From positions 6,444 through 70,443 of the forward strand of contig JBGVEW010000071.1 in the NCBI GenBank assembly GCA_045120465.1: a stretch of 64,000 nt of DNA, read 5' to 3'. The notes beneath the pieces are model-generated. The model ran no database searches, was not told the DNA's origin, and saw only the letters and a program-made list of their open reading frames with translations. Positions 3,834 through 55,334 of the stretch are shown here, one piece after another; positions within the stretch are counted from its first letter, which is position 1, and each line of letters starts with the position of its first letter. The DNA comes from Eubacteriales bacterium (GTDB lineage Bacteria > Bacillota > Clostridia > Oscillospirales > CAG-272). Made by a program: the position numbers and the translations under genes.

Positions 3834-3935
3834 AACAGTTCCTCCTTAAAAATGGGGTGAAAACAAGAGAAGAGCCGCTTGTGCGCTCTCGCGCAGGTTT
3901 GAAATTTTTGAGGTTATCAAAACGGTTCGTCTGCC

Positions 3936-5582
3936 TTACCACGGAGTGGGAACACCGTCAACGTATCTCCAATAATTTCCGTCCGCATCGGGTGCGCCGC
4001 CCTCGGCGTAGTAATAGATAGTAGCGGATATGAAGTTATCATAACCGATATTGATTTCTTGCCACTCATCAATATGTCCGCCGTAATAAACATTGTTGAG
4101 ATTCGTACAATTGAAAAATGCATAATCGCCGATGCTCGTGACATCCTCGGGAATTGTGATGCTTTCAAGGCTTGTGCAGTGATCGAACGCATAGCCGTCG
4201 ATACTTGTAACACTGTTCGGAATTGTGATACTTTCAAGGTTGGTACAACCATAAAATGCCCATTTTTCGATGGTCCATGGACCTTCGGGGATCGTGATAC
4301 TTGTCAAGGCGGTGCAATTGGCGAACGTCTGCTTGGCGATGCTTATCAAGTGACCGAGGATCGTGACGCTGTCCAGACTTGTACAATCGATAAATGCCTC
4401 AACACCGATGCTCCAAACGTCCTTGGGAATGGTGATACTCGTCAAGGTGCTACAATTCCGGAACACACCGTTGCCAATGGTCAACAAACGGTCTGGAAAC
4501 GTGATGCTTTCAAGGCTCTTGCAATCGAAGAATGCATAGTCGCGGATCGCTGTGAGACTATCAGGGAGCGTGACGTTTGTTAAACTGGTACAACCGTAGA
4601 ACGTGTAATAGTCAATGTATGTAACACCGCGGGGAATTGTGATGCTTGTGAGGGATGAGCAATCCCAGAATGCGTACTCACCGATGCTTGTGACAGTGTC
4701 GGGAAGTGTGATGCTTGTAAGGCTGGTGCACAAATCGAATGCATTATTGCCGATGCTTGTGACACGATTGGGAATCGTGATGCTTGTAAGACTGTAGCAA
4801 TCTTCGAATGCTCCGTTGCCGATGCTTGTGATGCTATCGGGAATTGTTACGCTTGTGAGGGATGAGCAATTCCAGAATGCTCCGTTGCCGATGCCCGTGA
4901 CAGGCATGCCTTGGTAAACGCTTGGAATTTTAAGCGTTGTGCCGGTATAAGAACCAATGCCACTCACAAAACAGTGATTTCCGTCTTGTGTAAACTCCAA
5001 TTGCCCCCAAACTTCAACACATGCAGAGCAAGTCAGATCTTGATTTTCTGCATTGTGTTCGGCAACGATCTCCTGATACGTTGAAAAATTGCAACGCGAG
5101 CAGGTTACGTAAGCGTCCCAACCGTTTTCCCTACAGGTTGGTTCCTTGGCTTCATGATGAATTTCATTTTCCGCTTTGTGTTGTGCCGGAATCGCTTGAT
5201 ACGTTGAAAAATTGGAACGCGAGCAGGTCACATAAGCATTCCAACCGATATTGGTGCAGGTTTCCTCTTTTGCTTCATGCTCAATCTCATCATGTCCTAA
5301 TGCATCAATTTCCCGCGTTTCACGCTCATCACACAGCCTACAACTACGAGATTGCTCTCCTTTTGTGCTACAGGTTGCTTCTTTTATGATGCTCCATTCG
5401 CCATATTGATGCTCGCATGTATCGGTGGGCGTATTGGGAGTGTTGGAACCATCCTCGGTAGGCGGTGTTTGCGGTGTGCCCGTGTCCGTGGTGGTTTCGT
5501 TTGTTTCTAAATTGCATGCACAAAGTGTAAGGAGCAATACAAGTGTCAACGACCAAAAGATAAGATGCTTGAAGTGTTTCAT
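3936..5582 (-). CDS. surface lipoprotein, paralog of 2628..3833 (Cys-rich modules plus BspA-type LRRs)
   Basis: The track ORF is 3936..5729. I place the start at ATG 5582 (MKHFKHLIFWSLTLVLLLTLCAC, signal peptide plus lipobox) because GGAGGG lies 8 nt upstream. It carries about 13 IPxxVTSIGxxAFxxCxSLTS LRR units and the same C-terminal ...APDADGNYWRYVDGVPTPW. Confidence 0.8.
   Translation of the reverse strand: MKHFKHLIFWSLTLVLLLTLCACNLETNETTTDTGTPQTPPTEDGSNTPNTPTDTCEHQYGEWSIIKEATCSTKGEQSRSCRLCDERETREIDALGHDEIEHEAKEETCTNIGWNAYVTCSRSNFSTYQAIPAQHKAENEIHHEAKEPTCRENGWDAYVTCSRCNFSTYQEIVAEHNAENQDLTCSACVEVWGQLEFTQDGNHCFVSGIGSYTGTTLKIPSVYQGMPVTGIGNGAFWNCSSLTSVTIPDSITSIGNGAFEDCYSLTSITIPNRVTSIGNNAFDLCTSLTSITLPDTVTSIGEYAFWDCSSLTSITIPRGVTYIDYYTFYGCTSLTNVTLPDSLTAIRDYAFFDCKSLESITFPDRLLTIGNGVFRNCSTLTSITIPKDVWSIGVEAFIDCTSLDSVTILGHLISIAKQTFANCTALTSITIPEGPWTIEKWAFYGCTNLESITIPNSVTSIDGYAFDHCTSLESITIPEDVTSIGDYAFFNCTNLNNVYYGGHIDEWQEINIGYDNFISATIYYYAEGGAPDADGNYWRYVDGVPTPW
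5050..5295 (-). repeat. intragenic tandem duplication, period 123 nt (41 aa), of the Cys-rich module
   Basis: gatacgttgaaaaattgcaacgcgagcaggt at 5075 recurs at 5198 as gatacgttgaaaaattggaacgcgagcaggt. At protein level, HEAKEETCTNIGWNAYVTCSRSNFSTYQ... aligns with HEAKEPTCRENGWDAYVTCSRCNFSTYQ... Confidence 0.75.
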
Positions 5583-5760
5583 TGTGTTTTCCCTCCAAAA
5601 TAAAAAGTGCGCAGCCGAAGCCACGCACGAAAAACGCATAGCTCCAATTGCTGCGACACAAGTGTTTCGTTTTCGGAAGAAAAGTATGCGAAACAAGAGC
5701 ATGCATTTTTGCCATAAGCAAAAATACACACTTTTCCGCCGAATTATTTACTTGTGTCGC
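5583..5760 (-). promoter_or_regulatory. structured 5' leader of about 178 nt for the LRR lipoprotein gene, ending in a terminator-like hairpin next to the RBS (candidate riboswitch or attenuator, class unknown)
   Basis: Nested helices: GCGACACAAGT (5760-5750) pairs with ACTTGTGTCGC (5663-5653); UUCGGCGGAAAAG pairs with CUUUUCUUCCGAA; UGUAUUUUUGC-uuaug-GCAAAAAUGCA forms an inner hairpin. Then comes GTGCGTGGC-TTCG-GCTGCGCAC (5628-5607), UUUUUAUUUU (5606-5597), and GGAGGG (5596-5591). Confidence 0.4.
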
Positions 5761-27742: not shown

Positions 27743-27753
27743 CGGAGTTGGTC

Positions 27754-28476
27754 ATGGGATTTGGATACGTATTGATCGGATATCTGGTCACGTTTGTGAT
27801 CTATCTGACCGTTCAGGCACTCAACGTAGGCTCCCTTGCAACGCTTTTGGGGTATGCGCTGATGTGCTACGGACTGTGGGGGCTCAACCGCTACCACGTC
27901 GCCTTTTCCATTGCAAAGTGGGCAGGCGTGGCGCGGCTTTGCCTGGTTCCTTATGCCGTTTTGTCGGATGCTTCTTCCATGTTCCTTTTTGATCTTCCTG
28001 TTTTGGGGGAGACTTGGAGCAACGCAGTGCATCTGTGTGGCTTTTGTCTGGAAATCGTCTTTCTCTTTGCAATGCTTTACGCGATTCGTATGCTGGCGGA
28101 TTCGGTCGAGCTTCCCAAGCTCTCCCGCGCGGCACTCCGGAACACGTTGTTCGTTGGGGCGTATGCCGTTTTGTATCTGGTGTGGTGTCTGCCGTTTGCA
28201 GAGGGGATTCGCCCGTACCTGACCTTTTCGATACAGCTGTTGAACCTCGCGGTCATTTTTCTCAATCTGTTGCTCCTTGTGCAGTGTACCAAAAGTATTT
28301 GCAGCGAGGGAGACGAGGAGGTCACACCCAAACGTTCCCGCTTTGAGTGGATCAACCGAATGGGGGATGCGTACGAGTCGGCACATTCCAAGCTGAACGA
28401 GCAGGCAAAAGCCGACGGTGAGGCGTTTATGCGCCGCCGTCGGGAAAAGAAAAATCAAAAAAAGAAAAAGCATTGA
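27754..28476 (+). CDS. hypothetical polytopic membrane protein with a basic C-terminal tail
   Basis: ATG 27754 has GGAG 6 nt upstream, only 11 nt after the secA stop. About 6 hydrophobic helices. C-terminus RRRREKKNQKKKKH. I recognise no family. Confidence 0.55.
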   Translation: MGFGYVLIGYLVTFVIYLTVQALNVGSLATLLGYALMCYGLWGLNRYHVAFSIAKWAGVARLCLVPYAVLSDASSMFLFDLPVLGETWSNAVHLCGFCLEIVFLFAMLYAIRMLADSVELPKLSRAALRNTLFVGAYAVLYLVWCLPFAEGIRPYLTFSIQLLNLAVIFLNLLLLVQCTKSICSEGDEEVTPKRSRFEWINRMGDAYESAHSKLNEQAKADGEAFMRRRREKKNQKKKKH

Positions 28477-28500
28477 TATTTTTGAAAAGGAGGGAAACAG

Positions 28501-29913
28501 ATGCGTCTTGCAATCAAGCAAAGCATGGGATTGTGGCTTTGTATTCCCGCAATTCTGTTTTTGGCAGAACCGAATATCGGCTTTCGTGATCTGTTTCCCA
28601 ACTGTATCGGGTATCTGTTGCTTTGCGCAGGGCTTTCGCGCGCGGCAGAGATCAACGACTACGTAGCCGATGCCGTTGCGGCTTTCAAAAAAATGGTTTG
28701 GATCAGCGTGGGCGCGATGCTGGCGGAGTATTATTTGCACAACGTCTTGCCAACGGAGGAAAAAGCGCTCAACACCTACGAAAGTCCAACGATGCTGTTG
28801 CTTTTTTCCTTTGTCATGCTGGTTCTCAAGTGTTATTTTTTGTTGCCCGCCTGTCGGGATTTGTTCCAAGGACTTGGGGCGTTTGCCGAGCGTCACGGCG
28901 GAGAAAAGATCTGCGAGGAGCGACACGGCAAAACCATCAGCGAGCGCATGAGTCGATTGACAAGAGTCTTTGTGGTGCTTTTGTCGGTGCTCTCGTTGCT
29001 GCCGGAACTTGCGGTGCTTGGCAGATTTGAATACGAGACGGAAAAAACACACGTGGATTGGTTCCGCTTTGTCGAGCTGTTCCGCACGTTGGCACTTTTC
29101 GCGGCGATCGCGCTTTCGATCTACTGGCTGATCCGTGTGCTTTCCTATATCGTTACGTTTCTCTCGGATCGGTCAATGTGTTGCGCCATAGAGGAACGGT
29201 ACGAGCGTGAAACACGTTGTAACGTTCCCATCAGAGAGTGGCGTCGTTATCGCTTCGCATTTTGGTTTTTAATGCTTGGTGCGGTCTTTTTTCTCTCGAT
29301 CCGTATGGACGACCGTGCAGTTTTGCCAAGCGCGTTTTGCGCATTGTTTGGTGTTATCGGTGTTTTTTGGACGGGTGTATCGGTCAAAACAAGGCATCGC
29401 GTGTGGATTTTGCTCACCGCTCTTTTGTCAGCGGTATGCAGTATTGCGGCGGGGAAGATCAACGATGAATATTTCAGACTTTACCTTTCTGCCGAGGCTT
29501 CTTACTATTCTACCACCGCATACCGATCCTTTTTAGCGGTCAGGATTTCTCAAATTGCCGAGGTTTTTCTGGTACTTCTTTTTTGGTTGACCGTCTTGGT
29601 CTGGCTGTATTCCTTTATCAAGGAAAAAGCGCGTGTGGCGTACAACGTTGAGGACGATCGGATTTCTGCCCGCGCAACCGAAAAAATGCACCGTCGTTTC
29701 CGCTTACGAGTGATTGTAAGTGCCGTATTATTCACCCTTTCCGCCGTCGGACAAGTATTCGAAATTCTTTTGCGCTTGCAATATCCGTGGCTGTGGTGGA
29801 TCTGTGTTCCTATCTCGTTGGCGGCAGTTCTCTCGTTTGTCGCGTTGCTGTTTGCGCTTTCGGATCATCTGGAGGAACAGGCACAAAGCGAAAAACAAAC
29901 GTATAAAGCCTGA
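28501..29913 (+). CDS. hypothetical polytopic membrane protein (470 aa)
   Basis: AAAAGGAGGGAAACAG-ATG. At least 9 hydrophobic helices. I recognise no catalytic motif. Confidence 0.6.
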   Translation: MRLAIKQSMGLWLCIPAILFLAEPNIGFRDLFPNCIGYLLLCAGLSRAAEINDYVADAVAAFKKMVWISVGAMLAEYYLHNVLPTEEKALNTYESPTMLLLFSFVMLVLKCYFLLPACRDLFQGLGAFAERHGGEKICEERHGKTISERMSRLTRVFVVLLSVLSLLPELAVLGRFEYETEKTHVDWFRFVELFRTLALFAAIALSIYWLIRVLSYIVTFLSDRSMCCAIEERYERETRCNVPIREWRRYRFAFWFLMLGAVFFLSIRMDDRAVLPSAFCALFGVIGVFWTGVSVKTRHRVWILLTALLSAVCSIAAGKINDEYFRLYLSAEASYYSTTAYRSFLAVRISQIAEVFLVLLFWLTVLVWLYSFIKEKARVAYNVEDDRISARATEKMHRRFRLRVIVSAVLFTLSAVGQVFEILLRLQYPWLWWICVPISLAAVLSFVALLFALSDHLEEQAQSEKQTYKA

Positions 29914-29931
29914 TTTTTGGCGCATACTGTC

Positions 29932-29952
29932 TTTGTAATTCCAAATTACAAA
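29932..29952 (+). promoter_or_regulatory. perfect AT-rich palindrome or stem-loop abutting the SD of the N/Q mini-ORF
   Basis: TTTGTAATT-cca-AATTACAAA, with 9-bp arms. It is followed immediately by AAGGAG (29953-29958). Confidence 0.45.
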
Positions 29953-29967
29953 AAGGAGTACAAAGCA

Positions 29968-30114
29968 ATGCAGAATAACAATCAGAATAACAATCAGAAC
30001 AACAATCAGAACAAGAATCAACAGAACAACAATCAAAACAAGAACCAGAACAAGAATCAGCAGAACAACAATCAGCAGAACAACAATCAGAATCAGAACA
30101 ACCGTTATCAGTGA
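29968..30114 (+). CDS. 48-aa Asn/Gln-repeat peptide (27 N, 15 Q), function unknown; it may be a leader peptide
   Basis: AAAGGAG lies 9 nt upstream of ATG 29968. Translation: MQNNNQNNNQNNNQNKNQQNNNQNKNQNKNQQNNNQQNNNQNQNNRYQ, ending in a double stop TGA-TAA. It lies in the same orientation inside a tightly packed operon. The track ORF 29917..30114 begins at an upstream TTG with no RBS. Confidence 0.5.
   Translation: MQNNNQNNNQNNNQNKNQQNNNQNKNQNKNQQNNNQQNNNQNQNNRYQ
29971..30102 (+). repeat. imperfect 12-nt tandem repeat (CAGAACAACAAT-like, about 10 units)
   Basis: cagaataacaat cagaataacaat cagaacaacaat cagaacaagaat ... All unit lengths are multiples of 3, so the N/Q frame is maintained. Confidence 0.8.
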
Positions 30115-30120
30115 TAACAG

Positions 30121-30136
30121 CCCTCCCTACGGAGGG
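30121..30136 (+). promoter_or_regulatory. stem-loop with an anti-SD arm between the mini-ORF and the ABC gene
   Basis: CCCTCC-ctac-GGAGGG, 6 nt after the stop codons. CCCTCC is also complementary to the downstream SD AGGAGGG (30151-30157). There is no U-tract, so it is not a classical terminator. Confidence 0.45.
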
Positions 30137-30164
30137 TACATAGCAACAAAAGGAGGGAACGGAT

Positions 30165-32474
30165 ATGCTTGAGATCGATCGGATCCCACGGGAAGTGTTT
30201 TTTGCGTTAGAACAAAAATCAATCGATACGGCAGATCTTTTGCTTGCAGTGCGTGCGGATCGCACGAGGGAGATGCAGGTAGGGGAGGTTTATCTGTTTG
30301 CTACGGAGGAGCAATTGATCCTGCTTTCGGGAATTGTTACCTTGCATCGTACCGAACAACTGCAACGCCACGGAGCACCCGTGTTACATACTTCGTTTTC
30401 CGAAAGTGGCTATGAGGTTTATCCCATTCGTACACTCTCGGCTTTTTCGGTTGAGGAATTGCTCTCCTCGGGGCGGCTGATCGCGCGCCGGGAGAAAGAG
30501 GGAGAGGAACCCTCACCGCTTTTGTTGGCTTCCTTTACCAATTTCTGCAAGGAATCCATGCTGATTTTTTCCAAATACGCAAACAAGCTTGCGGCGGGTG
30601 AGTCCCTCGAAATCGATCCCAAGGATCGCACCGAGGATAAGATCTGTCCCAAGTGCGGGATGCGCTATCCCGATCCCAATCGTAAGATCTGCCCCAAATG
30701 TATGGAGCGCGGTAAGCTCTTTCGACGCTTTTCGGTGTTTTTTTTGAAATATCGCAGATATCTGATCCTGTCCGTTCTGTCTTTGGTTTTGCTCAGCGGA
30801 ATGAGCATCCTGACCCCCTATCTTTCCAGCGGCTTCTTTTATGACGAGGTGATTGACAAAGCGGGACAGTTTGCGGGGCAACTTGTTCTTGTCATTTCGT
30901 TGATTATCCTCACCAATCTTTTTAAAATGCTTGCAACCATGGTCAACAACCTCGTTACGTCCGTGGTTGCCGCCAAGGTCGTATATGACCTCAAAAAGAC
31001 CATTTTCAGCGCGATCGAACGCTTGTCCATCAGCTTTTTCACCGGCAGGCAGACGGGAGGTTTGATGACGCAGGTCAACGAGGATGCCAACACGATCTAT
31101 ACCTTTTTCTGCGATAGTTTGCCCTATCTTTTGATCAATATCGTTCAGGTCATCGTTCTGTCGGTGCTGTTGTTTGTCATTCAACCGATTCTTGCCCTGG
31201 TGTCACTCGTCACCGTTCCGATCTTCTTTCTTTTGATGCGGTATATGGTTCGAAAATTGAGATTGTACCACGCTAAGCGCTATGCGGGCTCGCGCCAGAT
31301 GAACTCCTTTTTGGCAGACGTTCTTTCGGGCATGCGTGTGGTTAAAGCGTTTGCAAGGGAAGAGGAAGAAATCGAACGCTTTGGCGTGCGGAACGACAAT
31401 CTGGCGCAAAGCGAAAAAACGCTCGCGCTCTACACCAACACCGCGTGGCCCTTGGCACACTGGTTGCTTTACGTCGGCAACGTGATTGCATGGGGTGTTG
31501 GCGGCTATATGGCGATCAGCGGTCAGTGGAACATGACCTACGGTCTGCTTTTGACCTTTGTGACCTACGTAGGCATGATTTTCTCTCCATTGGAATTTTT
31601 CGTGAATTTTATCGACCGCGCGGCGGATTGTACCAATTCGTTGCAGCGTTTGTTTGAAATCATGGACGCACAGCCCGAGGTCAGCGAAAAGGAGGATCCC
31701 GTTCGCCCGAACCGTCTCGATGGGCGCGTGGAGTTTGACGGTGTCAGCTTCTCCTATCAAAAAGGGAAAAAGATTATCGACAACGTCAGCTTTGAGATTC
31801 CCGATGGGCATATTCTCGGAATCGTCGGACATACGGGAGCGGGAAAAAGCACGCTTGCCAATCTCATGATGCGTATGTATGATACCGAGGAGGGAGAGAT
31901 CCGCATCGGTGGGTATCCCATCAAGGATCTGGAGCTTTCGGCACTCTACCGCAATATTGCCATCGTATCGCAGGAGACCTACCTGTTTATTGGCACGATC
32001 CTCGATAACATTCGTTACGCGCGTCCGGACGCAAGCTTTGAGGAGGTCGTAGAGGCGGCAAAATGCGCAGGAGCGCATGACTTTATTATGAAGCTTCCGG
32101 ATGCGTATCATACGCGCATCGGATTTGGATATCAGGATCTTTCTGGGGGCGAGAGACAGCGTGTTTCCATCGCAAGAGCGATTTTGAAGGACCCCAAAAT
32201 CTTGATTTTGGACGAAGCGACCGCGGCAATGGATACCGCTACCGAGCGTAAGATCCAGGAGGCACTTTCCTATCTGACACGCGGCAAGACCACGATCATG
32301 ATCGCGCACCGTCTTTCCACCTTGCGTGATGCCGACGAATTGATCGTCATCGAGCGCGGACGGGTTGCGGAGAGAGGTACGCATAAGGAGCTTTTGCAAA
32401 AGAGCGACGGTGTTTATCATAAACTCTTTACCCTGCAAGAAGAAGCGCTGAAGAGCGCGGGAATCAGCGAATAA
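30165..32474 (+). CDS. ABC exporter (TMD-NBD half-transporter) with an N-terminal cytoplasmic extension of about 195 aa ending in a zinc ribbon
   Basis: 769 aa. CPKCGMRYPDPNRKICPKC lies just before TM1. Six TM helices. Walker A GHTGAGKSTL, signature LSGGERQRVSIARA, Walker B ILILDEATAAMD. Confidence 0.85.
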   Translation: MLEIDRIPREVFFALEQKSIDTADLLLAVRADRTREMQVGEVYLFATEEQLILLSGIVTLHRTEQLQRHGAPVLHTSFSESGYEVYPIRTLSAFSVEELLSSGRLIARREKEGEEPSPLLLASFTNFCKESMLIFSKYANKLAAGESLEIDPKDRTEDKICPKCGMRYPDPNRKICPKCMERGKLFRRFSVFFLKYRRYLILSVLSLVLLSGMSILTPYLSSGFFYDEVIDKAGQFAGQLVLVISLIILTNLFKMLATMVNNLVTSVVAAKVVYDLKKTIFSAIERLSISFFTGRQTGGLMTQVNEDANTIYTFFCDSLPYLLINIVQVIVLSVLLFVIQPILALVSLVTVPIFFLLMRYMVRKLRLYHAKRYAGSRQMNSFLADVLSGMRVVKAFAREEEEIERFGVRNDNLAQSEKTLALYTNTAWPLAHWLLYVGNVIAWGVGGYMAISGQWNMTYGLLLTFVTYVGMIFSPLEFFVNFIDRAADCTNSLQRLFEIMDAQPEVSEKEDPVRPNRLDGRVEFDGVSFSYQKGKKIIDNVSFEIPDGHILGIVGHTGAGKSTLANLMMRMYDTEEGEIRIGGYPIKDLELSALYRNIAIVSQETYLFIGTILDNIRYARPDASFEEVVEAAKCAGAHDFIMKLPDAYHTRIGFGYQDLSGGERQRVSIARAILKDPKILILDEATAAMDTATERKIQEALSYLTRGKTTIMIAHRLSTLRDADELIVIERGRVAERGTHKELLQKSDGVYHKLFTLQEEALKSAGISE

Positions 32475-32492: not shown

Positions 32493-33038
32493 ATGCAAAA
32501 AAACGGTATCATGGAAGAAAACGGAGCCGAGAAAAAAACACGCACACTGGCGGAATTGTCGGTCACGGTTTGGCTCACACCCGAAAACGCGAGCTTTTCC
32601 TTCCAAAATAACTTTTTGTATATCAAATACGGAGAGATCGAGACGCGTGCCTTTCTCTGCCGACAGTTCCCGTTTGAATTGCAATGGGAATTTATTTCGG
32701 TGATGAATGAAGACAGCGAGGAGATCGGAATCATCCGCGACGTATCTTTGTTTGAGGGAGAGGCGGGGGCGATGCTCAAAAACGAGCTTGAACGTCGCTA
32801 TTATGCGCCGGTGATCAAACAGATCTTAAACGTTAAGGAACGTTACGGCTTTTCCTATTGGAAGGTACATACGGGTGAGGGCGAGGTCAATTTTACCCTG
32901 CGCGACACCTATCGCAGCATTATTCATGCGGGCGGCAACCGTATTTTGCTCTTGGACGTCAACGGCAACCGCTTTGAAATTCCCGACACGTCTTTGCTCG
33001 ATCGCAAAAGCTACAAAAAGATCGAGCTGTATCTGTAA
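32493..33038 (+). CDS. DUF1854-like protein (family assigned from memory, uncharacterised)
   Basis: 181 aa, soluble. It sits between the two ABC genes, with gaps of 18 and 14 nt. The C-terminal ..LLLDVNGNRFEIPDTSLLDRKSYKKIELYL resembles what I remember of DUF1854/PF08909. Confidence 0.55.
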   Translation: MQKNGIMEENGAEKKTRTLAELSVTVWLTPENASFSFQNNFLYIKYGEIETRAFLCRQFPFELQWEFISVMNEDSEEIGIIRDVSLFEGEAGAMLKNELERRYYAPVIKQILNVKERYGFSYWKVHTGEGEVNFTLRDTYRSIIHAGGNRILLLDVNGNRFEIPDTSLLDRKSYKKIELYL

Positions 33039-33052
33039 GGGGGCGCGACGGT

Positions 33053-35329
33053 ATGGATTATCGAGAACGGATGTACGAGCGCGCCAAAAAGCTTGATCCG
33101 ACGCTTGCGATCGAGGATATGGTCGATCTTTCAATGGGGAATTTAGACCCCGGCGAGGCAAAGCGCGCAGTCAAGGATTTTTATCTGGTTACGACGCGTG
33201 ATTTGAAGGTTTACCGTGAGGATTCTATGATTCTTTGCGAGTCGATTGAAAATATAGAATCCTTTCGAATCGTGTCGGGAGTTGGGTGTGTATTTGTGGC
33301 GTACGTGCGAAAGAGTGACGGAGAGCACGTGATCTTCGGACGTGCCGACAACCGCAGGCAGGGAATGCTTGCCGGGGCAGTCAAGCGCATCAATCACTAT
33401 TTACGCTATCAAAACGTAGATTTTTCCCATTTGGAAGCCGCGGGAGGCGGGCAGTGTTCCAAATGCGGCAAGCCCTTGCCGCGCGGCTCACGCACCTGTC
33501 CCCGTTGCGCATCCAAAAAGCAGGCGATCCTACGCCTGTTGGGGTTGGCGAGGGACGAAAAAGGAAAGCTCGCCCTTTCGGTGCTGTTTTTCTTTCTCGG
33601 TACGGGCGTTAGCCTTGTGATTCCGCAAATCAACCGCATCCTCGTCGATGCGTTTATCAGTCCCGTTGAAGCTTGGGATACGGCAACTCCGATCGGTAAG
33701 ATCGGAGCATGGGTCAGCTCCGCTCCCGCGGCAGGCTTTTGGGTAGCGTTTATCAGTGTGATCTTGTCCATGCTGTTCGTCAATCTCCTTAGGCGCCTCA
33801 TCGGTATTGCGCGCGGTTATTTTTTGACCGTTGCGGGCAATCGCCTGATTCTTCGCTTGCGCGATACGGTGTTTTCAAAAATTCAGCATCTTTCCATTTC
33901 CAAAATTTCAGAGCGTACATCGGGGGAATTGATGCAGCGTGTCAACAGTGATACGAGGCAGATCAAAATGTTTTTGATCAACCAGCTCCCCAACCTGATC
34001 GAACAGATACTGCTGCTTTTGGGTATCGGAATTTACGTCATCGTTCTGGCGGGGGGGAATTGGATCATCCCATTGTTAATTCTGGTTCCCGCGCCCTTTG
34101 TGGCGCTGGCGTTCCGCTTATTTTGGCGGTTTATGCGTCAGTTGTTTCAAAGGCGATGGCAGATCCACTCCGAGGCAAACGCCGTTTTGCACGATATTTT
34201 TTCGGGCATCCGTGTGGTTAAGGCGTACGGAATGGAAAAAAGAGAAGAGGAGCGCTTTGTCACAATGGCGGCACGCGAGCGCGACGCGCAGCTTCGCATT
34301 GAAAAGATCTGGGCTTTTTTGATGCCGATGCTTCATACGCTGATGGGTGTTGGAGAGTACGCGCTTTTGTTTTACGTGGGGAGCAGAATGCTTGACGGTT
34401 CGATGAGTGCGGGTGAAATGGCACAGTTTTCCGCATATGCGGGAATGTTGTTTGGCCCGATGTCCACTCTGATGAATTTTCCGCGCCAATTTATGCAAAT
34501 GATGACGTCATTGACGCGTGTTTATGAGATCATGGACGAAGAGGTTGAGGAAAAACGTGATGACGGGAGAGAGCGAAAAACGTTTGACGGTGTGATTGAT
34601 ATCAATCACGTGTCCTTTGGTTACGAGGATGCACACGAGGTGCTCAGGGATATCGATCTGCACATCAAGCCCGGGGAATTTATCGGGCTTGTCGGACGTT
34701 CGGGGGTCGGAAAATCTACGCTGATCAATCTGATCATGCGGATGTACGACGTGGACGAGGGCTCAATTACGATCGACGGTGAGGATATCCGAAAGATCCC
34801 CGAGGAGCATCTGCGCTCGCAGATGGGCGTGGTACTGCAGGAGAATTTTTTGTTCACGGGAACGGTATGGCAAAATCTGACCTATGCAAAGCCACACGCA
34901 ACGCGCGAGGAGGTCATTCAGGCATCAAAGACCGCGGGGGCACATGAGTTTATCATTCGCCTTCCCGACGGTTATAATACTTACGTTGGAGAGCGTGGGC
35001 ATACGCTCTCGGGTGGTGAGCGTCAGAGAATTTCGATCGCGCGAGCACTGTTGCACGATCCAAAGATCCTGATTCTTGACGAAGCCACGGCATCCTTGGA
35101 TACCGAAACCGAAAAGCTGATTCAGGATGCGTTGGCGGCACTTTCGGCGGGCAGAACGACCATTGCCATTGCGCACCGCCTTTCCACGCTCCGCAATGCC
35201 ACGCGGCTTGTGGTGTTGGATCGCAGCGGTGTTGCCGAGGTTGGCACACACGAGGAGCTGATGGCAAAAGAAGGCATCTATTACGGACTCGTTATGGCAC
35301 AGCGTGAAATGTCAAAGATGGAAAATTAA
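33053..35329 (+). CDS. ABC exporter (TMD-NBD) with an N-terminal extension of about 170 aa ending in a zinc ribbon; likely partner of 30165..32474
   Basis: 758 aa. CSKCGKPLPRGSRTCPRC lies before TM1. Walker A GRSGVGKSTL, signature LSGGERQRISIARA, Walker B ILILDEATASLD. Confidence 0.85.
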   Translation: MDYRERMYERAKKLDPTLAIEDMVDLSMGNLDPGEAKRAVKDFYLVTTRDLKVYREDSMILCESIENIESFRIVSGVGCVFVAYVRKSDGEHVIFGRADNRRQGMLAGAVKRINHYLRYQNVDFSHLEAAGGGQCSKCGKPLPRGSRTCPRCASKKQAILRLLGLARDEKGKLALSVLFFFLGTGVSLVIPQINRILVDAFISPVEAWDTATPIGKIGAWVSSAPAAGFWVAFISVILSMLFVNLLRRLIGIARGYFLTVAGNRLILRLRDTVFSKIQHLSISKISERTSGELMQRVNSDTRQIKMFLINQLPNLIEQILLLLGIGIYVIVLAGGNWIIPLLILVPAPFVALAFRLFWRFMRQLFQRRWQIHSEANAVLHDIFSGIRVVKAYGMEKREEERFVTMAARERDAQLRIEKIWAFLMPMLHTLMGVGEYALLFYVGSRMLDGSMSAGEMAQFSAYAGMLFGPMSTLMNFPRQFMQMMTSLTRVYEIMDEEVEEKRDDGRERKTFDGVIDINHVSFGYEDAHEVLRDIDLHIKPGEFIGLVGRSGVGKSTLINLIMRMYDVDEGSITIDGEDIRKIPEEHLRSQMGVVLQENFLFTGTVWQNLTYAKPHATREEVIQASKTAGAHEFIIRLPDGYNTYVGERGHTLSGGERQRISIARALLHDPKILILDEATASLDTETEKLIQDALAALSAGRTTIAIAHRLSTLRNATRLVVLDRSGVAEVGTHEELMAKEGIYYGLVMAQREMSKMEN

Positions 35330-35389: not shown

Positions 35390-38300
35390 TTATTCACTTC
35401 TCAATGCTTCTACGGGATTGCGCTTTGCTGCAAATCTTGCGGGGAAGATGCCCGCAACCAAGGTCAGGATCATGCTGATCGCAACCAGAATGACTGCGCC
35501 CGCTACGGGAAGCGTTGCCTTGAGGTTGACAAGACCTGTGAGGTTAAAGAGAATGATATTGATGATTACGTTGAGTCCCAACGTGACGAGAATACCGATC
35601 ATACCCGCCACAAATCCCACGATCAGGGTCTCCGCGTTGAATACGCGGCTGACATCCTTTTTGGACGCACCGATCGCACGCAGGATACCGATCTCCTTGG
35701 TTCTTTCCAAAACCGAGATATAGGTGATGATACCGATCATAATCGAGGATACCACCAACGAGATGGCAACAAAGGCGATGAGCACGTAGGTGATGGCATT
35801 GAGGACGGTGGTGATGGAAGACATCAAAAGACCAACGTAGTCGGTAAATTCGATCTTCTTCAACTCACCCACGGAATCGTTATAGGCTCTGATCTCCGCG
35901 CTGATCATATCCTTATTTTCAAAGGAAGACGCGTAGAGATAGATGGATGAGGGGCTTTCTTCCTTCACGTCACCCAAAACAAAGAGGTTGTTTTCGTAGG
36001 TGGAATCCGAGAATTCGCGCGGCACACCGTCAAGCTCGTACAAAGCGGCAAATTGCGCATCGGTCAGTGAAACGGCAACCTCAGCGGCAGTCTTTTCGCC
36101 AAAGACCGTTTGCTTGACCTGTTCCGTGACCGTACTGGTTGCAAGCGCGGTGCAGAGAGCGGCTTTGAGCTCGGGAGAGGCGAGAATGATTTCGGGTGTG
36201 ATACCTGCGGGAATTTCCATTCCCATCTGGGGTGCTTGCAGAAGTGCCATTTGAATGATGGGCTTGAGCTGTTCGTCGGGCATTGCCGCAAACTGTGCGC
36301 TTGCCGCCGCGATCGCTTCCTCGGTAACGAAAATATTCATCAGGAAAGCCTTTGCGGTTTCCTCGTCCAATGTGTTGATATACTTGAGAACGACGTTCTT
36401 TTTCTGCTCTGCGGTAATCTCTTTTCCGGTGTCAAAGGGCTTGCCGGAGAGAACGTCCATTTCGGTATTTTCCTTTTGGAGAGCCAAAAGGTCGCTTCCC
36501 TTGGTGCGCTCCAATGCCTCTGCCGCCAAAGCGGAGGTGTAACCGATCGTGCCTGCGGTCAGGGTAGTTGCGCTCACGCCTTCACGTGGACGGACGATAC
36601 CGACGACCTTCAGCGTAAATCCGACGTCCTTGTCCTTGTAGAGGGTTTCACGTCCTTCTGCGGTTGCGCTCAGATCCACGTAGTTACCGCTTGCTTCGTC
36701 GTACTTGTAGCACTCGGAAGCCAGGATCAAACGGTATTCCATTTGGCGGATCTCTTCAAAGGTCCAGGATTTACGTTCGGAAAGATCAACCTGCTCTCCG
36801 TTCATTGCGGCGTTAAAGCCTTGCATCATTTCCGCTTTTGTGCGAAGACCCAAAGAGTAAAGGGAAAGGTCGCTGATCTCGTTTTTACCGTTTACAACGA
36901 GGATCACTTCGTTTGCGGCGGTAGGCCAGCGGCTGCCCTCATCAACAAATTCATACTGCTCCTTGAGCAGATCGTTGACCAACGCGTCGCTGTTTTGGTC
37001 AATCGGAGCCAGCATTTCCTGCCATACGTCAAGCGTATCGGCGGACATCATGCCACCCATGATACCCGTTGATCCGCCCATCATATTGCCCATCATGCCG
37101 TTGGCACCGGAGAGCCACCCCATCATATCGGACTTGATTACGGGAGCGGTGCTGTTGGGGTTGAGCGCATCACCCTCGCGGACGAAGATGCTCCAGTTGA
37201 AATCGTAGGCGTATTGAACAGCCGAGAGATATTCGTCGAATTTTCCGGATTCCTCAAGATGCTTCTTAAAGGAAACGAGGTCGTTGTAGGAGGTACCGCT
37301 TGTACCCATTGCATTGACGAGCTGAGCCAGAATGATACTTTCGTAGATCTTATCCAGATCGTGATCGAATTCACCGCTGTTTTGCTCCTCCATCAGGGTG
37401 GTCATAATGCCGCCGAGATTCATGGATTGTGCGTGCAGCTCAAGGGGATAGCCCGAAAGTGTTTCGCGCTGCACCGAATCGATATAGGCGTTGACACCGG
37501 TGGAGACCGAAAGGATCAGCGCGATACCGATGATACCGATCGAGCCCGCAAAGGAGGTCATAAAGGTGCGTCCTTTTTTGGTCATCAGGTTATTGAGCGA
37601 GAGCGAGAGGGCTGTTAGGAAGGACATGGACTTCTTTTTCTTGCCTCCTGCGGGAGCAACGCCGCTGCCGCCAAGCTGAAGCGGTACGACGTCCTTTTCG
37701 TTGACCGAGAACATTCCCCAAAATCCGCGTTTTTTCTTGGCGTGTTCCGCACGTGTCGCGGGATCGCTGTCTGCTGAATAGGGATTGGTATCCTCAACCA
37801 CGCGTCCATCCACCACGCTGATGATACGAGAGGAATACTCGCGCGCAAGCTCGGGGTTGTGCGTGACCATAATGATCAGCTTTTTCTTGGAGATTTTGCG
37901 CAGAATGTCCATGATCTGCACGCTGGTCTGCGTATCCAAAGCACCCGTCGGCTCATCCGCCAAAAGGATATCGGGGTTATTGACCAGAGCGCGTGCGATG
38001 GCAACGCGTTGCATTTGTCCGCCCGAAAGCTGATTGGGCTTTTTCTTCAGTTGGTTTCCAAGCCCAACCTCTTTGAGTGCGTTTGCCGCGCGGCGGCGAC
38101 GCTCCTTTTTAGAGATACCCGAAAGCGTGAGTGCCAATTCTACGTTGGCAAGCACGGTTTGGTGGGGAATGAGGTTGTAGCTTTGAAATACGAAGCCGAT
38201 GGAATGGTTACGGTAGGTATCCCATGCCGCGTCATCATATTTTTTGGTGGAAACGTTGTTGATGATCAAATCACCGCTGGTGTACTGATCCAAGCCGCCG

Positions 38301-38452
38301 ATGATGTTCAAAAGAGTCGTTTTACCGCATCCGGACGGACCTAAGATCGATACGAATTCGCTTTTTCGGAATTGCAGGGAAATGCCGTCAAGTGCGCGGA
38401 CCTTTGTGTCGCCCGCTTTATAGTCCTTGACAATGTTTTTCAGTTCAAGCAA
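35390..38452 (-). CDS. fused ABC ATPase / FtsX-family permease (MacB-like) with a very large extracytoplasmic domain
   Basis: 1020 aa. TTG start with GGGAGG 8 nt upstream. N-terminal NBD: [36 protein letters not shown]. The first TM is near residue 300, followed by about 580 aa without TM helices, then a C-terminal FtsX 3-TM bundle. Confidence 0.85.
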
Positions 38453-38549: not shown

Positions 38550-40301
38550 TTATTCTTCAAATTGGCTGTGATACAGGTGATGATAAAAGCCACCGCGTTG
38601 CAAAAGCTCTTCGTGCGTTCCTTGCTCCACGATATTTCCGTCCTTCATGACTAAGATCCGATCGGCAGACTCAATGGTGGAGAGTCGGTGCGCCACGACA
38701 AAGGAGGTACGTCCCTGCATCATTTCCGCAAAGGCGTTTTGGATCTTGAGCTCCATTCTCGTATCGATCGAGGAGGTCGCCTCGTCGAGAATCAGCATCG
38801 GCGGCAGACACAGCATGACGCGGGTAATGCAAAGCAACTGCTTTTGACCTTGCGAAAGCGTTCCGCCGTTTTCACCGAGAACGGTGTCGTAGCCGTTCGG
38901 CAAACGCTTGATAAAGGAGTGTGCGTGGGAGGCCTTTGCGGCGGCGATCATTTCCTCGTCGGTCGCATCGGGCTTGCCCATACAAATATTTTCTCTGACC
39001 GTTGCGGCACGCAACCACGTATCCTGCAACACCATGCCCCAAGAGGCGCGGAGAGAGGAGCGGGTCATTTCCTTGATATCGGTTCCGTCCACGGTGATCC
39101 TTCCGCTGTTTACGTCATAAAAGCGCATCAGCAGATTGATCAAAGTGGTTTTTCCGCATCCCGTAGGGCCTACGATGGCAATTCTCTGCCCGGACTTTAC
39201 CGAAAGGGAGAGATGGCGGATCAATTCGCGGTCGGGGGAGTAGGAGAAGGAGACGTTTTCTATGGAGACGTTTCCCGTGGCATCGGTTAAGACCTTCGCA
39301 TCGGGTGCCTCTGCGGGGATCTCTTGCTCATCAAGAAGCTCAAACAAACGCCCCGCGCACGCCAGCGCGTTTTGAAGCTCTGCCAAAACGCCCGAAATCT
39401 CGTTAAAGGGCTTTGTGTATTGGTTGGCGTAATTGAGAAATACCGACAGCGTTCCCACCGAAAAGCTTGGCGTGGCAATGCAGAAAAACGCACCGATGAG
39501 GGCAACTCCTGCATAAACCAGATTGTTGACAAAACGGGTGGAGGGGTTGGTCAGCGAGGAGAAGAAGGTTGCTTGATGCGCAATGCGACCAAGGCGGTCG
39601 TTGATCTCGTTGAACTGTTCGATCGATTCCTTCTCGTGCCCGAACGCCACCACCACCTTGTGGTTTCCGATATATTCGTCGATCATTGCGGTCTGCTCGG
39701 CGCGGGTTTTGGATTGCAGAACGAACATCGAGTGCGTGTGCTTTGCGATAAAGGATGCCACGAACAGGGAGAGTGGAGTGACGAATATGACGACGAGGGC
39801 AACCGACCAATTTAAGATCAGCATAATGACAAGCGTACCGAGAATGGTCAACAGTCCCGTCAAAAACTGTGCAAAGCCGAGAAGAAGTCCGTCGGTAAAC
39901 TGATCGACGTCCGAGATCATACGGCTGACCGTTTCGCCCGTCGGGTGTTGATCGAGATAGGAGAGCGGCAATTTTTGGATTTTTGTAAAGGCTTCGCGGC
40001 GCAAACGCTTGACCATGCCGTAGGTGATACGGTTGTTGAGTACGTTCATTACCCACTGGGAAAGGGCAGAGATCAGCGTGCATAGCGCGATCAGCGTTAC
40101 TGCCTGCCATACGATGCTCCACGTAACGGTTCCCTCTGCAAGAATTCCGTCAATGGCGCGACCCGTCAAAAGTGGGATCGCAAGAGAGAGAGAGACGTTG
40201 AGCGCGGCTAACAAAAGGGAAACGAGCAGTGCCGCGCGGTAGTGGTGCAAGCCCTTCAGCACGCGTTTTACGGTGCTTTTATCAAAGGTTGGGAGCGTCA
40301 T
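38550..40301 (-). CDS. ABC exporter half-transporter (heterodimer partner with a degenerate signature motif)
   Basis: 583 aa. Walker A GPTGCGKTTL and Walker B MLILDEATSSID. The signature is LSQGQKQ rather than LSGGQ. Confidence 0.88.
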   Translation of the reverse strand: MTLPTFDKSTVKRVLKGLHHYRAALLVSLLLAALNVSLSLAIPLLTGRAIDGILAEGTVTWSIVWQAVTLIALCTLISALSQWVMNVLNNRITYGMVKRLRREAFTKIQKLPLSYLDQHPTGETVSRMISDVDQFTDGLLLGFAQFLTGLLTILGTLVIMLILNWSVALVVIFVTPLSLFVASFIAKHTHSMFVLQSKTRAEQTAMIDEYIGNHKVVVAFGHEKESIEQFNEINDRLGRIAHQATFFSSLTNPSTRFVNNLVYAGVALIGAFFCIATPSFSVGTLSVFLNYANQYTKPFNEISGVLAELQNALACAGRLFELLDEQEIPAEAPDAKVLTDATGNVSIENVSFSYSPDRELIRHLSLSVKSGQRIAIVGPTGCGKTTLINLLMRFYDVNSGRITVDGTDIKEMTRSSLRASWGMVLQDTWLRAATVRENICMGKPDATDEEMIAAAKASHAHSFIKRLPNGYDTVLGENGGTLSQGQKQLLCITRVMLCLPPMLILDEATSSIDTRMELKIQNAFAEMMQGRTSFVVAHRLSTIESADRILVMKDGNIVEQGTHEELLQRGGFYHHLYHSQFEE

Positions 40302-42055
40302 TTTACGTCACCCCCTTTTCTGTATTGAGAGTGATGGATCTCACGATAAACCTCGCAGGTTGCCAACAACGCGTCGTGCGTACCGATGCCGACAAGACGC
40401 CCGTCCTCCATGACGAGAATGATATCCGCATGACGAATGGAGGAGGTCCTTTGGGAGATCAAAAACACGGTAGGATGACCTTGCAGTGCTTTCAGGGAGG
40501 CGCGCAGTGCTGCGTCAGTGGCATAGTCGAGTGCCGAGGAACTGTCGTCAAGAATCAGAATATCGGCATTTTTGACCAACGCACGCGCGATGGTCAGACG
40601 TTGGCGCTGACCGCCCGAAAAATTGCTTCCGCCTTGTTCCACAGGCTCGTCCAAGCCGCTCGGCTTTTGCAAAATGAATTCCTTAGCCTGCGCGGCTTCC
40701 AGTGCCGCCCACAATTCCTCATCCGAAGCATCGGGGTTGCCCCACAGGAGATTGGAACGTACCGTTCCGCGAAAGAGTACCGATTTTTGGGGAACGGTTG
40801 CGATCTTATTCCGCAATTCATTTGGGTCATAAGTGCGCACGTCGCGCCCCATGACCAATACTCGTCCCGCGTTTGCATCATAGAAACGGGGGATGAGATT
40901 GGCAAGCGTTGTTTTTCCCGATCCCGTGGAACCGATCACACCGACAGTGGATCCTCGTGGAATCGAAAAGCTGATATCCGAAAGGGTTTCGGTGGCGTTG
41001 CCCTCATAGGTCATAAACACCTTTTCAAAGCGTACCGCCTCGGTTCCGTCGGCTTCTTCTTGATGGGGAAGGACCTGCGTGCCGGAGGGGATATCAAACA
41101 CCTGAGCGATGCGATCGCCCGATGCCAACGCTTTGTTGAGCGCGAAGATCGTGGTTGCGAACTTGACCAGCTCAACCAATATCTGCGCCATGTAATTGGT
41201 CATCGCCACCACGTCGCCCTGCGTCATACTACCGATCTCAACCAGTTTAGCACCCGACAAAAGCAAGCCGATCACGCCTGCGTTCACCACCACCAGCGTC
41301 AAAGGATTCATCAGGGCGGAGATCTTGCCTACAAAATTTTGTGCGCGATTGTGTTCGTCGTTGGCGGCTTCAAAGCGTGCGGTTTCTTCCGTTTCTTTGC
41401 GGAAGGCGCGGAGAACGCGAACGCCGCCAAGATTTTCACGCGTGATCGCAGTTACGCGGTCAAGGCTCTTTTGTACGTTTTTGTAGAGCGGCTTGTTGCG
41501 GAGCATAATGGAGAATACGATGATCGCCAACAGAGGGATCACTGCCGCAAAAATCCACGCTGAGGTTGGGTTGACCGTAAACGCCATGAGTGCCGCGCCC
41601 AAAACGATGATGGGGGAGCGAAGTAGCAGGCGAAGCGTCAGATTGATGCCCGATTGCATCTGGTTGACGTCACTCGTCATGCGTGTGATGAGCGTCGCAC
41701 ATCCCACACGGTCGGTTTGGCTGTAGGAAATGCCTTGAACGTGCGCAAACAGATCGCGGCGAAGATCGGTTGCAAATCCCACTGCGGCACGCGCGGCAAA
41801 GTATTGCGCGATCAAGGCGCAGGTCAAACCTACAATGGCAAACAGGACGAGCACACCGCACATCATTCCGATAAAGCCGTAGCCGTCCGCCCCGGGAATC
41901 GGTGAGGACGCACTTCCGTTTGCAATTCCTTCGTCGATGATCAGCTTGACAACGATCGGTACCAAGAGGTCAAAAATTGCCTCTAACAGCTTAAAGAGCG
42001 GGCTGATGACGCATTCCTTTCGGTAGGGCTTTAAGTATTTTAAGAGTTTTTTCAT
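40298..42055 (-). CDS. ABC exporter half-transporter (heterodimer partner lacking the catalytic Glu)
   Basis: 585 aa. Walker A GSTGSGKTTL and signature FSGGQRQRLTIARA. Walker B is ILILDDSSSALD, with Asp in place of the catalytic Glu. ATGA overlap with the downstream partner gene. Confidence 0.88.
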   Translation of the reverse strand: MKKLLKYLKPYRKECVISPLFKLLEAIFDLLVPIVVKLIIDEGIANGSASSPIPGADGYGFIGMMCGVLVLFAIVGLTCALIAQYFAARAAVGFATDLRRDLFAHVQGISYSQTDRVGCATLITRMTSDVNQMQSGINLTLRLLLRSPIIVLGAALMAFTVNPTSAWIFAAVIPLLAIIVFSIMLRNKPLYKNVQKSLDRVTAITRENLGGVRVLRAFRKETEETARFEAANDEHNRAQNFVGKISALMNPLTLVVVNAGVIGLLLSGAKLVEIGSMTQGDVVAMTNYMAQILVELVKFATTIFALNKALASGDRIAQVFDIPSGTQVLPHQEEADGTEAVRFEKVFMTYEGNATETLSDISFSIPRGSTVGVIGSTGSGKTTLANLIPRFYDANAGRVLVMGRDVRTYDPNELRNKIATVPQKSVLFRGTVRSNLLWGNPDASDEELWAALEAAQAKEFILQKPSGLDEPVEQGGSNFSGGQRQRLTIARALVKNADILILDDSSSALDYATDAALRASLKALQGHPTVFLISQRTSSIRHADIILVMEDGRLVGIGTHDALLATCEVYREIHHSQYRKGGDVK

Positions 42056-55217: not shown

Positions 55218-55334
55218 TTGTGTGTAACCTCTCTTGTTGTGAAATTGTGTATAGTGTTGTACCCTTGGCGGATTTGCACCGCTATCTTTGCACATGGAGC
55301 AACGCTTTGTTTAAGCTATTCGGGCATAGGGGTG

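Follow-up and report, generated by a model that had tools for sequence, protein, structure and literature searches.

A conserved gene for an asparagine- and glutamine-rich peptide, possibly of the spore stage, in front of a DUF1854/ABC exporter operon in gut Clostridia

A 64-kb stretch of DNA from a member of the Eubacteriales (contig JBGVEW010000071.1), referred to below as the window, carries an operon of two ATP-binding cassette (ABC) exporter genes, ABC1 and ABC2, that flank a gene for a DUF1854 protein, and immediately in front of this operon, on the same plus strand, lies a short open reading frame (mini-ORF; 29968..30117) for a cationic peptide composed mostly of asparagine (N) and glutamine (Q). 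The mini-ORF consists of 48 codons followed by the double stop TGA TAA (30112-30117) and is preceded, 9 nt before its ATG at 29968, by the Shine-Dalgarno (SD) sequence AAAGGAG (29952-29958). The predicted product, MQNNNQNNNQNNNQNKNQQNNNQNKNQNKNQQNNNQQNNNQNQNNRYQ, contains 27 N, 15 Q, and 3 K and then R-Y-Q, so that 88% of its 48 residues are N or Q. A stem-loop, hairpin 1 (TTTGTAATT-cca-AATTACAAA; 29932..29952), abuts the SD at the predicted 5' end of the transcript, and a bipartite promoter-like motif, GTATA(AA)-N17-CATACTG (29901..29929, with the -35-like box at 29901-29905 and the -10-like box at 29923-29929), is found ~45 nt upstream of the ATG, overlapping the last codons of the preceding gene for a 470-aa protein. 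On the other side, a second stem-loop, hairpin 2 (CCCTCC-ctac-GGAGGG; 30121..30136), starts 6 nt after the first stop, has no U-tract, and is followed directly by the element TACAT(A) (30137..30142), a candidate cleavage site (U^ACAUA) of the endoribonuclease MazF. The SD of the first ABC gene, AGGAGGG (30151..30157), and its ATG at 30165 come next. The positions given in the original prediction for the SD, ATG, stops, hairpins, and the SD and ATG of the ABC gene all agree with the sequence; the promoter-like motif, the invariant UACAUA, and a published link between DUF1854/ABC proteins and polymer export are additions to it.

Related loci, numbered L006, L011, and so forth, were gathered through a DUF1854-anchored scan with one genome per species, which yielded 80 loci, all from uncultured Clostridia/Oscillospiraceae-type metagenome-assembled genomes (MAGs) of animal guts. 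The mini-ORF was analyzed in 35 species-level loci, the window included, with some counts made on 33 loci or on 31 intact ORFs; the comparison set lacking the mini-ORF comprised 36 distant ABC1-DUF1854-ABC2 loci and the syntenic loci L042, L044, and L048; and variation within the window's own species was read from public assemblies with ABC1 more than 90% identical and with identical flanks. All 35 loci contain an N/Q-rich ORF of 44-74 codons located 46-123 nt upstream of ABC1 on the same strand, and such an ORF is present in every locus of the clade with the gene order SecA-242aa-470aa-ABC1-DUF1854-ABC2 whose contig reaches that far, with the exceptions of L042, L044, and L048. In essentially all loci, AAAGGAG (or GGAG) precedes the ATG by 8-10 nt, the MQN start is conserved, an in-frame stop is absent from 31 of 31 intact ORFs, and the stop codon is placed just before hairpin 2 throughout. 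Six in-frame length alleles, encoding 38, 40, 46, 47, 48, and 53 aa between identical flanks, were found in the window's species, and the length of the ORF across alleles and species loci taken together ranges from 38 to 74 codons. These comparisons bear out two earlier claims, that the mini-ORF is coding and conserved, the same SD spacing and hairpin 2 recurring in 35 species-level loci, and that its repeat number changes in frame.

The amino acid composition of the family is similarly uniform, with averages of 52% N, 28.5% Q, 5% K, and 4% R (~81% N+Q), every member having a net charge of +2 to +5 and scarcely any hydrophobic residues. Most members have an Arg, often accompanied by Cys or Tyr, among their final residues, and the C-terminal region repeatedly contains basic residues; neither a signal peptide nor a double-glycine motif was found in the peptide. 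Non-N/Q codons are rare, and the choice among Asn and Gln codons follows genome-like ratios (AAC:AAT, 68:32; CAG:CAA, 62:38), indicating that selection acts on the residues rather than on a nucleotide motif. The mini-ORF is also called as a gene by the gene callers applied to public assemblies. From these sequence comparisons, we conclude that the mini-ORF is a protein-coding gene, selected for composition and charge and not for exact sequence or length.

The contrary possibility, that the region has no peptide function and serves as an A/C-rich spacer prone to slippage or as an element of RNA or DNA, for instance a protein-binding platform, that is open by chance, draws on several features of the locus. 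Openness of the frame alone is weak evidence of coding because the region is T-poor and frame +1 is likewise stop-free in 29 of the 31 loci. Moreover, the ORF contains an imperfect tandem array (29966..30092; Tandem Repeats Finder period of 12 nt, 9.8 copies, 81% matches) with alternative periods of 15, 27, 30, and 39 nt, all multiples of 3 apart from one low-scoring period-8 row, and with units of 6 and 9 nt in relatives; repeat units that are multiples of 3 let slippage keep the frame automatically, and no homologue is detectable by profile search. Chance openness is nevertheless hard to reconcile with a strong SD at optimal spacing before a conserved ATG and MQN start, with a stop that always falls just before hairpin 2, with the free interchange of synonymous codons while non-N/Q codons stay rare, with alleles that differ by one or two codons (46, 47, and 48 aa) and keep the frame, and with the retention of the ORF in the diverged loci L041 and L045 where the repeat has been lost. 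We consider such an origin extremely improbable.

The diverged loci show how far the peptide can drift. In L041 (3444-3590), the peptide is ~35% N/Q, rich in K and E, and contains an RCDKCKK motif and two Cys; the member in L045 (3425-3592) has NNAQ repeats and has lost the extreme N/Q bias. The promoter motif, SD, hairpin 2, and TACAT are retained in both, and the regulatory shell is thus more conserved than the composition of the peptide. Two other loci are irregular in different ways. In L022 (2682-2879), the usual stop of the mini-ORF is gone and the frame reads through hairpin 2 and TACAT (..NRKSGFCLPMGGTYLPAR) to end 18 nt before ABC1, which reflects a genuine loss of the stop or a frameshift, or else misassembly of the repeat. 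In L024 (3198-3420), the promoter motif, hairpin 1, and SD lie ~170 nt upstream of the present start of the mini-ORF and are followed by an insertion, with a new GC hairpin and a weaker SD now preceding the ATG; the 5' end of this cassette has apparently been rearranged.

The mini-ORF peptide fits no described family, as the original prediction had held. No Pfam family was matched at E <= 0.01 and no NCBIfam family either; Rfam gave no match at gathering thresholds for the whole window and 11 related loci, nor in a permissive scan of positions 29850-30200. The exact peptide is absent from a collection of 15 billion proteins, and a profile built from 28 aligned peptides yielded 8000 word candidates among 5.8 billion proteins, none of them significant owing to the low complexity of the peptides. 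A pattern scan of metagenomes for an SD plus an MQN start produced no N/Q ORF among the at least 120 matches listed, all of which were unrelated, and no description of such a peptide was found in the literature searched.

The motif upstream of the mini-ORF has the consensus G[ACT]ATAAA-N17/18-gCATA[CA]T, in which the 17 or 18 nt are counted from ATA; the boxes are kept in 31 of 33 loci and the spacer varies. The reading frame in which the motif overlaps the end of the 470-aa gene differs, so that the stop codon of that gene does not account for the conservation of the motif. The strict form occurs once in the 64 kb of the window and 43 times in 1.68 Mb of related loci, with 32 of these occurrences in front of a mini-ORF. 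It does not fit sigma-A. It is similar to the mapped forespore sigma-F/G promoters of C. difficile, among them those of spoIIR (TGAATAAA..GGACATAATT; -35 element GAATAAA), of a SASP (small acid-soluble spore protein) gene (TGTATAAA; GTATAAA), and of rbr (AGCATAAA; GCATAAA), and the C. difficile forespore promoters are themselves said to resemble those of B. subtilis sigma-F/G (Table S6, PMC3789822). By comparison with the textbook sigma-E promoter of spoIVA in related MAGs, TCATAAT-N14-CATATAAT, the G of the -35 box, the spacing, and the -10 box all differ. Similarity of consensus, which is the basis of this assignment, suggests that the motif is a promoter of the forespore sigma-F/G class.

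The spoIVA gene itself lies directly downstream of ABC2 in three distant relatives (L051:8812-10389, L059:8864-10442, and L083:8809-10370), where it carries a textbook sigma-E promoter and where radA is divergently oriented upstream of ABC1. The related MAGs that carry spoIVA with a sigma-E promoter indicate spore formation in the wider group; that this sporulation gene adjoins the exporter operon may be a coincidence. An apparently conserved plus-strand element upstream of the distant ABC operons ('SSTKVFH..EQEGHFPIHLG') proved to be the reverse strand of the start of the divergent radA. Elsewhere in the window, on the minus strand (54891-55910), a 191-aa sigma-70 family factor is encoded, with weak SigH/SigI-like matches that are all far below cutoff, and the gene next to it specifies a 134-aa protein, with a pair of treble-clef zinc-finger domains, that may be the anti-sigma partner of this factor.

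The two stem-loops differ in strength and conservation. Hairpin 1 is weak: its folding energy is -4.9 kcal/mol (z = -2.9) in the window and, among the loci with such a hairpin, mostly lies between -2.5 and -8.6 kcal/mol. About 22 of 33 loci have a stem of 5 bp or more, the core GTAAT..ATTAC being conserved; the sequence at this position is another one in four lineages, and hairpins of other sequence occupy it in L024, L043/L049, and L045. In 35 of 35 loci, hairpin 2 has a perfect stem, 5 bp or longer, with the same end position, and at least 14 different stem sequences are represented, including compensatory changes (CTCTCC/GGAGAG, CCCCCTT/AAGGGGG, CCCGC/GCGGG, and CATCCCC/GGGGATG); 5% of shuffles of the same bases qualify as hairpin 2. 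Of the signals that the original prediction had proposed to check in relatives, the frame, SD, ATG, and hairpin 2 (35/35) are preserved, and hairpin 1 is lost in ~10 of 33 loci. The purine/pyrimidine asymmetry of the hairpin 2 stem is what transition-only compensatory evolution would preserve. A terminator scan of the plus strand identified none between the mini-ORF and the ABC gene and one weak site within the upstream gene (29701-29722). The purine arm of hairpin 2 was also considered as the SD of a hidden ORF starting from AUA, and this was ruled out, as the loci do not share the frame.

Directly 3' of hairpin 2, the T-A-C-A-T columns are identical in 35 of 35 loci, the next base being A in 29 and C in 6, and UACAU(A/C) is unpaired in the predicted folds. 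The combination of hairpin and TACAT occurs once per locus, right after the mini-ORF, the exception being an additional weak match with a 5-bp hairpin within the ABC gene of the window's species, and is missing from loci without a mini-ORF. A reading of TACATA as a -10 box was rejected, given that the conserved T at position 6 is missing and that there is no consistent -35. The strict cleavage site of MazF in Bacillota, B. subtilis and Listeria among them, is U^ACAUA, UACAUC is a weak secondary site of the S. aureus enzyme, and MazF is activated on entry into stationary phase (bioRxiv 10.64898/2026.08.06.743204). The element matches this hexamer exactly in 29 of 35 loci, in single-stranded form, and is TACATC in the other 6, from which we infer that it is a MazF cleavage site; it would differ from those described in that no conserved, hairpin-flanked processing site at a fixed intercistronic position was found in the MazF preprint (bioRxiv 10.64898/2026.08.06.743204). 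The sense strand carries two more TACATA hexamers, at 30385 inside ABC1, with a 5-bp stem before it, and at 32866 inside the DUF1854 gene, so that the exporter message would also be cut if MazF acts.

The placement of an ORF with at least 40 Asn/Gln codons directly in front of an operon raises the possibility of a regulatory leader that reports amide-nitrogen or aminoacyl-tRNA status to the exporter genes, which was one of the two hypotheses of the original prediction. The extreme bias toward two amino acids of shared amide chemistry and the conservation of composition alone, as opposed to sequence or length, would be compatible with such a role. Two variants of it can be framed, in which either the pairing of the anti-SD-like arm changes or stalled ribosomes expose an unstructured, A/C-rich, G-poor RNA as a loading site for Rho: the base composition of the ORF's RNA (44-63% A, 21-30% C, 7-24% G, and 3-13% T) is what a Rho utilisation site should have, and the 5' arm of hairpin 2 is generically complementary to SDs (mean duplex energy of -11.5 kcal/mol). 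Yet neither the folds nor the terminator scan revealed a terminator/antiterminator alternative, no Rfam leader was matched, and the local hairpin with its 4-nt loop dominates the predicted folds. The proposed switch between CCCTCC and the SD of the ABC gene finds no backing in covariation, since the arm pairs with its own ABC SD no better than with those of other species (mean rank of 0.48) and at least 5 loci pair weakly (-4.4 to -7.5 kcal/mol); a ribosome terminating at the stop of the mini-ORF would free the purine arm and not the anti-SD arm. Compared with the attenuation leaders of his, trp, and pheA and with TnaC/Rho control, the mini-ORF shares the short codon-biased ORF before an operon and the C-rich, G-poor RNA, but the genes downstream encode exporters rather than biosynthetic enzymes, alternative structures are lacking, and the ORF, with its 38-74 codons, far exceeds known leader peptides in length. 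Its codons are common rather than rare, and the conserved positive charge and the basic residues of the C-terminal region point to selection on the product. In two loci, moreover, a sigma-A promoter downstream of the ORF (described below) bypasses any leader control, and three relatives have lost the cassette without replacement. Taken together, the lack of a terminator or antiterminator, the lack of covariation with the SD, and the downstream sigma-A promoters leave the leader reading poorly supported, and we regard it as quite improbable.

On the best-supported account, the mini-ORF is not a leader but a genuine gene for a small protein, with a promoter of its own. Accordingly, of the two original hypotheses, a genuine N/Q peptide is favored by the conserved SD, ATG, and MQN start, the composition and charge, and the separate promoter-like motif and flanking hairpins. 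The distribution of the cassette sets it apart from the exporter as well. The promoter-like motif, ORF, hairpin, and TACAT are all missing from the syntenic loci L042, L044, and L048, in which ABC1 begins ~40-90 nt after the 470-aa gene, and the mini-ORF and cassette are missing from the 36 distant ABC1-DUF1854-ABC2 loci, whose operons have a canonical TTGACA-17-TATAAT promoter or follow a MarR-family gene. Even within the clade, the exporter genes of L011 (3567-3700) and L012 (3582-3690) have sigma-A promoters, TTGACA-17-TATGAT and TTGACT-17-TACAAT, respectively, between hairpin 2/TACAT and the start of ABC1, and the spacer between hairpin 2 and ABC1 is ~100-130 nt in these two loci vs ~25-80 nt elsewhere. 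The sigma-A promoters of the distant operons and of L011 and L012, together with the cassette-free relatives, indicate that the exporter is normally a vegetative operon and that the cassette comes and goes as one unit.

The genes around the cassette offer clues to its context. Upstream of the cassette, two uncharacterized multi-pass membrane proteins of 242 and 470 aa (27748..29913, plus strand), neither of which belongs to a Pfam or NCBIfam family, follow secA, and the order SecA-242aa-470aa-[cassette]-ABC1-DUF1854-ABC2 is confined to loci L006-L049. Downstream, also on the plus strand, ABC1 (30165-32474; 769 aa), the DUF1854 gene (32493-33038; 181 aa; Pfam), and ABC2 (33053-35329; 758 aa) form the exporter operon, both ABC proteins having the Pfam domains ABC_membrane and ABC_tran. 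The best NCBIfam match of ABC1 and ABC2 is NF052233, a cyanophycin metabolism-associated ABC transporter (490 and 528 bits; cutoff of 880), and that of the DUF1854 protein is NF052234 (73 bits; cutoff of 150); with scores below the curated cutoffs, the proteins are related to these families and not members of them. No cyanophycin synthetase was found among the scanned ORFs of the window, a few short ORFs being left out, or among the sampled neighbors of the distant loci. Each ABC protein has an extra cytoplasmic N-terminal domain of ~170-190 aa that ends in a CxxC..CxxC zinc ribbon before the first transmembrane helix. These extensions correspond to window positions 30165-30764 and 33053-33640, and the NF052233 model aligns only from residue ~120-140 onward; apart from a weak, below-cutoff Pfam match for the zinc ribbon of ABC2, both extensions lack a family match. 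The AlphaFold model of the DUF1854 protein (predicted local distance difference test score, pLDDT, of 81) has no fold match in the PDB at E <= 0.001, and no sequence relative of the protein was found there.

Other parts of the window add to the inventory of transport and surface genes. Beyond ABC2, a minus-strand gene (35390-38452) encodes a MacB-like protein of 1020 aa that combines an ABC ATPase domain at the N terminus with an FtsX-type permease domain at the C terminus; only some relatives have this gene in synteny. Two more MsbA-like ABC exporter genes follow as a pair on the same strand (38550-42055), and the region is unusually exporter-dense. Two adjoining minus-strand genes (2628-5729) contain leucine-rich-repeat adhesin-like (HupY/LrrG-type) repeats.

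The proximity of the mini-ORF to the exporter operon raises the question of whether the peptide is its cargo, that is, a ribosomally made, polymer-like substrate of the heterodimeric ABC/DUF1854 exporter. It would be pumped out of the cytoplasm, or from the forespore into the spore envelope, and would form a hydrophilic polyamide or amyloid-like matrix, with the hairpin and UACAUA setting a high ratio of peptide to transporter. Attenuating hairpins behind bacteriocin and lantibiotic structural genes act likewise. In support of such a role, the ORF precedes ABC1 at short distance and on the same strand in 35 of 35 loci with no terminator between, a peptide without a signal peptide would need a dedicated exporter, the extra cytoplasmic N-terminal domains of both ABC proteins could dock a substrate, and the closest NCBIfam families of ABC1, ABC2, and the DUF1854 protein are those associated with cyanophycin metabolism. 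The DUF1854/ABC family has been proposed to export a nitrogen-rich, cyanophycin-like amino acid polymer (Price et al., bioRxiv 10.1101/072470), and cyanophycin is cited as a possible material of the C. perfringens spore matrix (PMC5532821, citing Liu et al. 2016).

Several observations weigh the other way. The exporter operon occurs without the peptide in the 36 distant loci and in L042, L044, and L048 and is thus widespread in its absence, so that the peptide is not its general substrate; the promoter classes of the cassette and the exporter differ, the exporter of L011 and L012 being under its own sigma-A promoter; the NCBIfam scores fall under the curated cutoffs; and the DUF1854 model lacks an informative fold match. 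The adjacency itself is confounded by conservation of the entire syntenic block. Compared with the cyanophycin-associated ABC and DUF1854 proteins (NF052233/NF052234), the system shares the pairing of an ABC exporter bearing an N-terminal extension with a DUF1854 protein but differs in being a heterodimer whose N-terminal domains end in zinc ribbons and in having no synthetase nearby; cyanophycin is made by a dedicated synthetase, whereas the candidate polymer here would be ribosomal. Leaderless exported peptides, in turn, include the phenol-soluble modulins with their Pmt exporter, and in bacteriocin and lantibiotic loci, the structural gene and a hairpin precede the transporter genes. The mini-ORF resembles these in being short, lacking a signal peptide, and having strong expression signals and a stem-loop before transporter genes, but its product has no amphipathic helix and its composition is unlike that of any known exported peptide. 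Neither ABC protein carries a C39 peptidase domain, and no modification enzymes were found among the neighbors; with the double-glycine motif also not found in the peptide, each of the features sought for a precursor of a bacteriocin or of a ribosomally synthesized and posttranslationally modified peptide, exported by a peptidase-containing ABC transporter (PCAT), is missing. On balance, we consider export by this system somewhat unlikely, although it is the foremost alternative to the reading set out next.

The reading that we prefer is that the mini-ORF encodes a stand-alone, strongly expressed, spore-stage N/Q-rich peptide with a storage or matrix role, which we hold tentatively, as a possibility falling a little short of an even chance. 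It overlaps the cargo model, and the sole difference is where the peptide ends up. Under the proposed scheme, the cassette would be transcribed during sporulation, and the two stem-loops and the strong SD would give a stable, heavily translated short mRNA, with a cut at UACAUA, by MazF or another single-strand endonuclease, splitting the mRNA of the mini-ORF from the exporter message. The product would be an abundant, disordered, cationic polyamide peptide that may provide an amide-nitrogen and amino acid reserve for the spore and/or a hydrophilic matrix. It might then be a functional analogue, rather than a homologue, of the Gln/Asn-rich gamma-type SASP that is absent from Clostridia. SASP genes are sigma-G dependent, and none of the clostridial genomes examined contains the Q/N-rich gamma-type SspE, whose role is thereby left vacant in Clostridia; in Bacillales, SspE is expressed from a sigma-G forespore promoter and is thought to be only an amino acid reserve for outgrowth (PMC3533761), and the mini-ORF has a forespore-like motif as judged by consensus. 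Both peptides are small, hydrophilic, repeat-containing, Gln/Asn-rich, and variable in length and sequence. The mini-ORF peptide differs from SspE in being far richer in N+Q (~81% on average and 88% in the window) and basic rather than near-neutral, and its gene lacks a U-tract terminator and is embedded before an ABC operon; there is no sequence homology between the two.

A number of points count against this interpretation. The promoter class is based on consensus likeness, which tells sigma-F/G from sigma-E to a modest degree. A search of the 64-kb window for sporulation genes found none, and sporulation of this particular species is therefore a presumption. The peptides have no homology to any SASP family and, unlike typical ssp genes, the mini-ORF has no U-tract terminator. 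The GPR protease recognizes a site resembling E-[FIY]-[AG]-S-E-[FT], and no GPR-type cleavage motif was found in the peptides, which have essentially no E, F, A, or S so arranged. As for the putative processing step, a PemK/MazF gene was not found in the window, and TACATA, whose avoidance would point to MazF, shows no depletion there (11 observed vs ~11 expected). Finally, the location of the mini-ORF inside a gene string, 50 nt before the exporter, favors a functional link with the latter, and with the whole block syntenic, position cannot separate a spore peptide from an exported cargo. A scenario that combines the two, in which the peptide is a ribosomal polyamide polymer that has replaced a cyanophycin-like polymer as the dedicated DUF1854-ABC cargo in this clade, is produced at the spore stage from a message split at a hard-wired MazF site, and is deposited outside the membrane as an N/Q gel or amyloid matrix of the spore envelope, appears to us unlikely.

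Should the peptide prove to accumulate in spores, Clostridia, a class without gamma-type SASPs, would have in it the first candidate for a small spore protein of their own with a storage or matrix role. It would then also represent an extreme natural case of a bacterial polypeptide built of Asn and Gln only, relevant to prion-like and gel-forming sequences and to nitrogen storage. If exported, it would be the first defined, genetically encoded substrate of the uncharacterized DUF1854/ABC transporter family. The hairpin-UACAUA combination is a candidate for a conserved, built-in MazF processing site, which, if true, would support a role of MazF as a precise mRNA regulator and not a toxin; either a ribosomal polymer cargo or a hard-wired MazF processing site would be new in kind. 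The array also breaks assemblies, as seen in L047, where an N-run interrupts it, and in L014 and L210, whose contigs end there, and with a family that is of low complexity, and hence invisible to homology searches, as well as assembly-breaking, such genes are likely to be under-reported.

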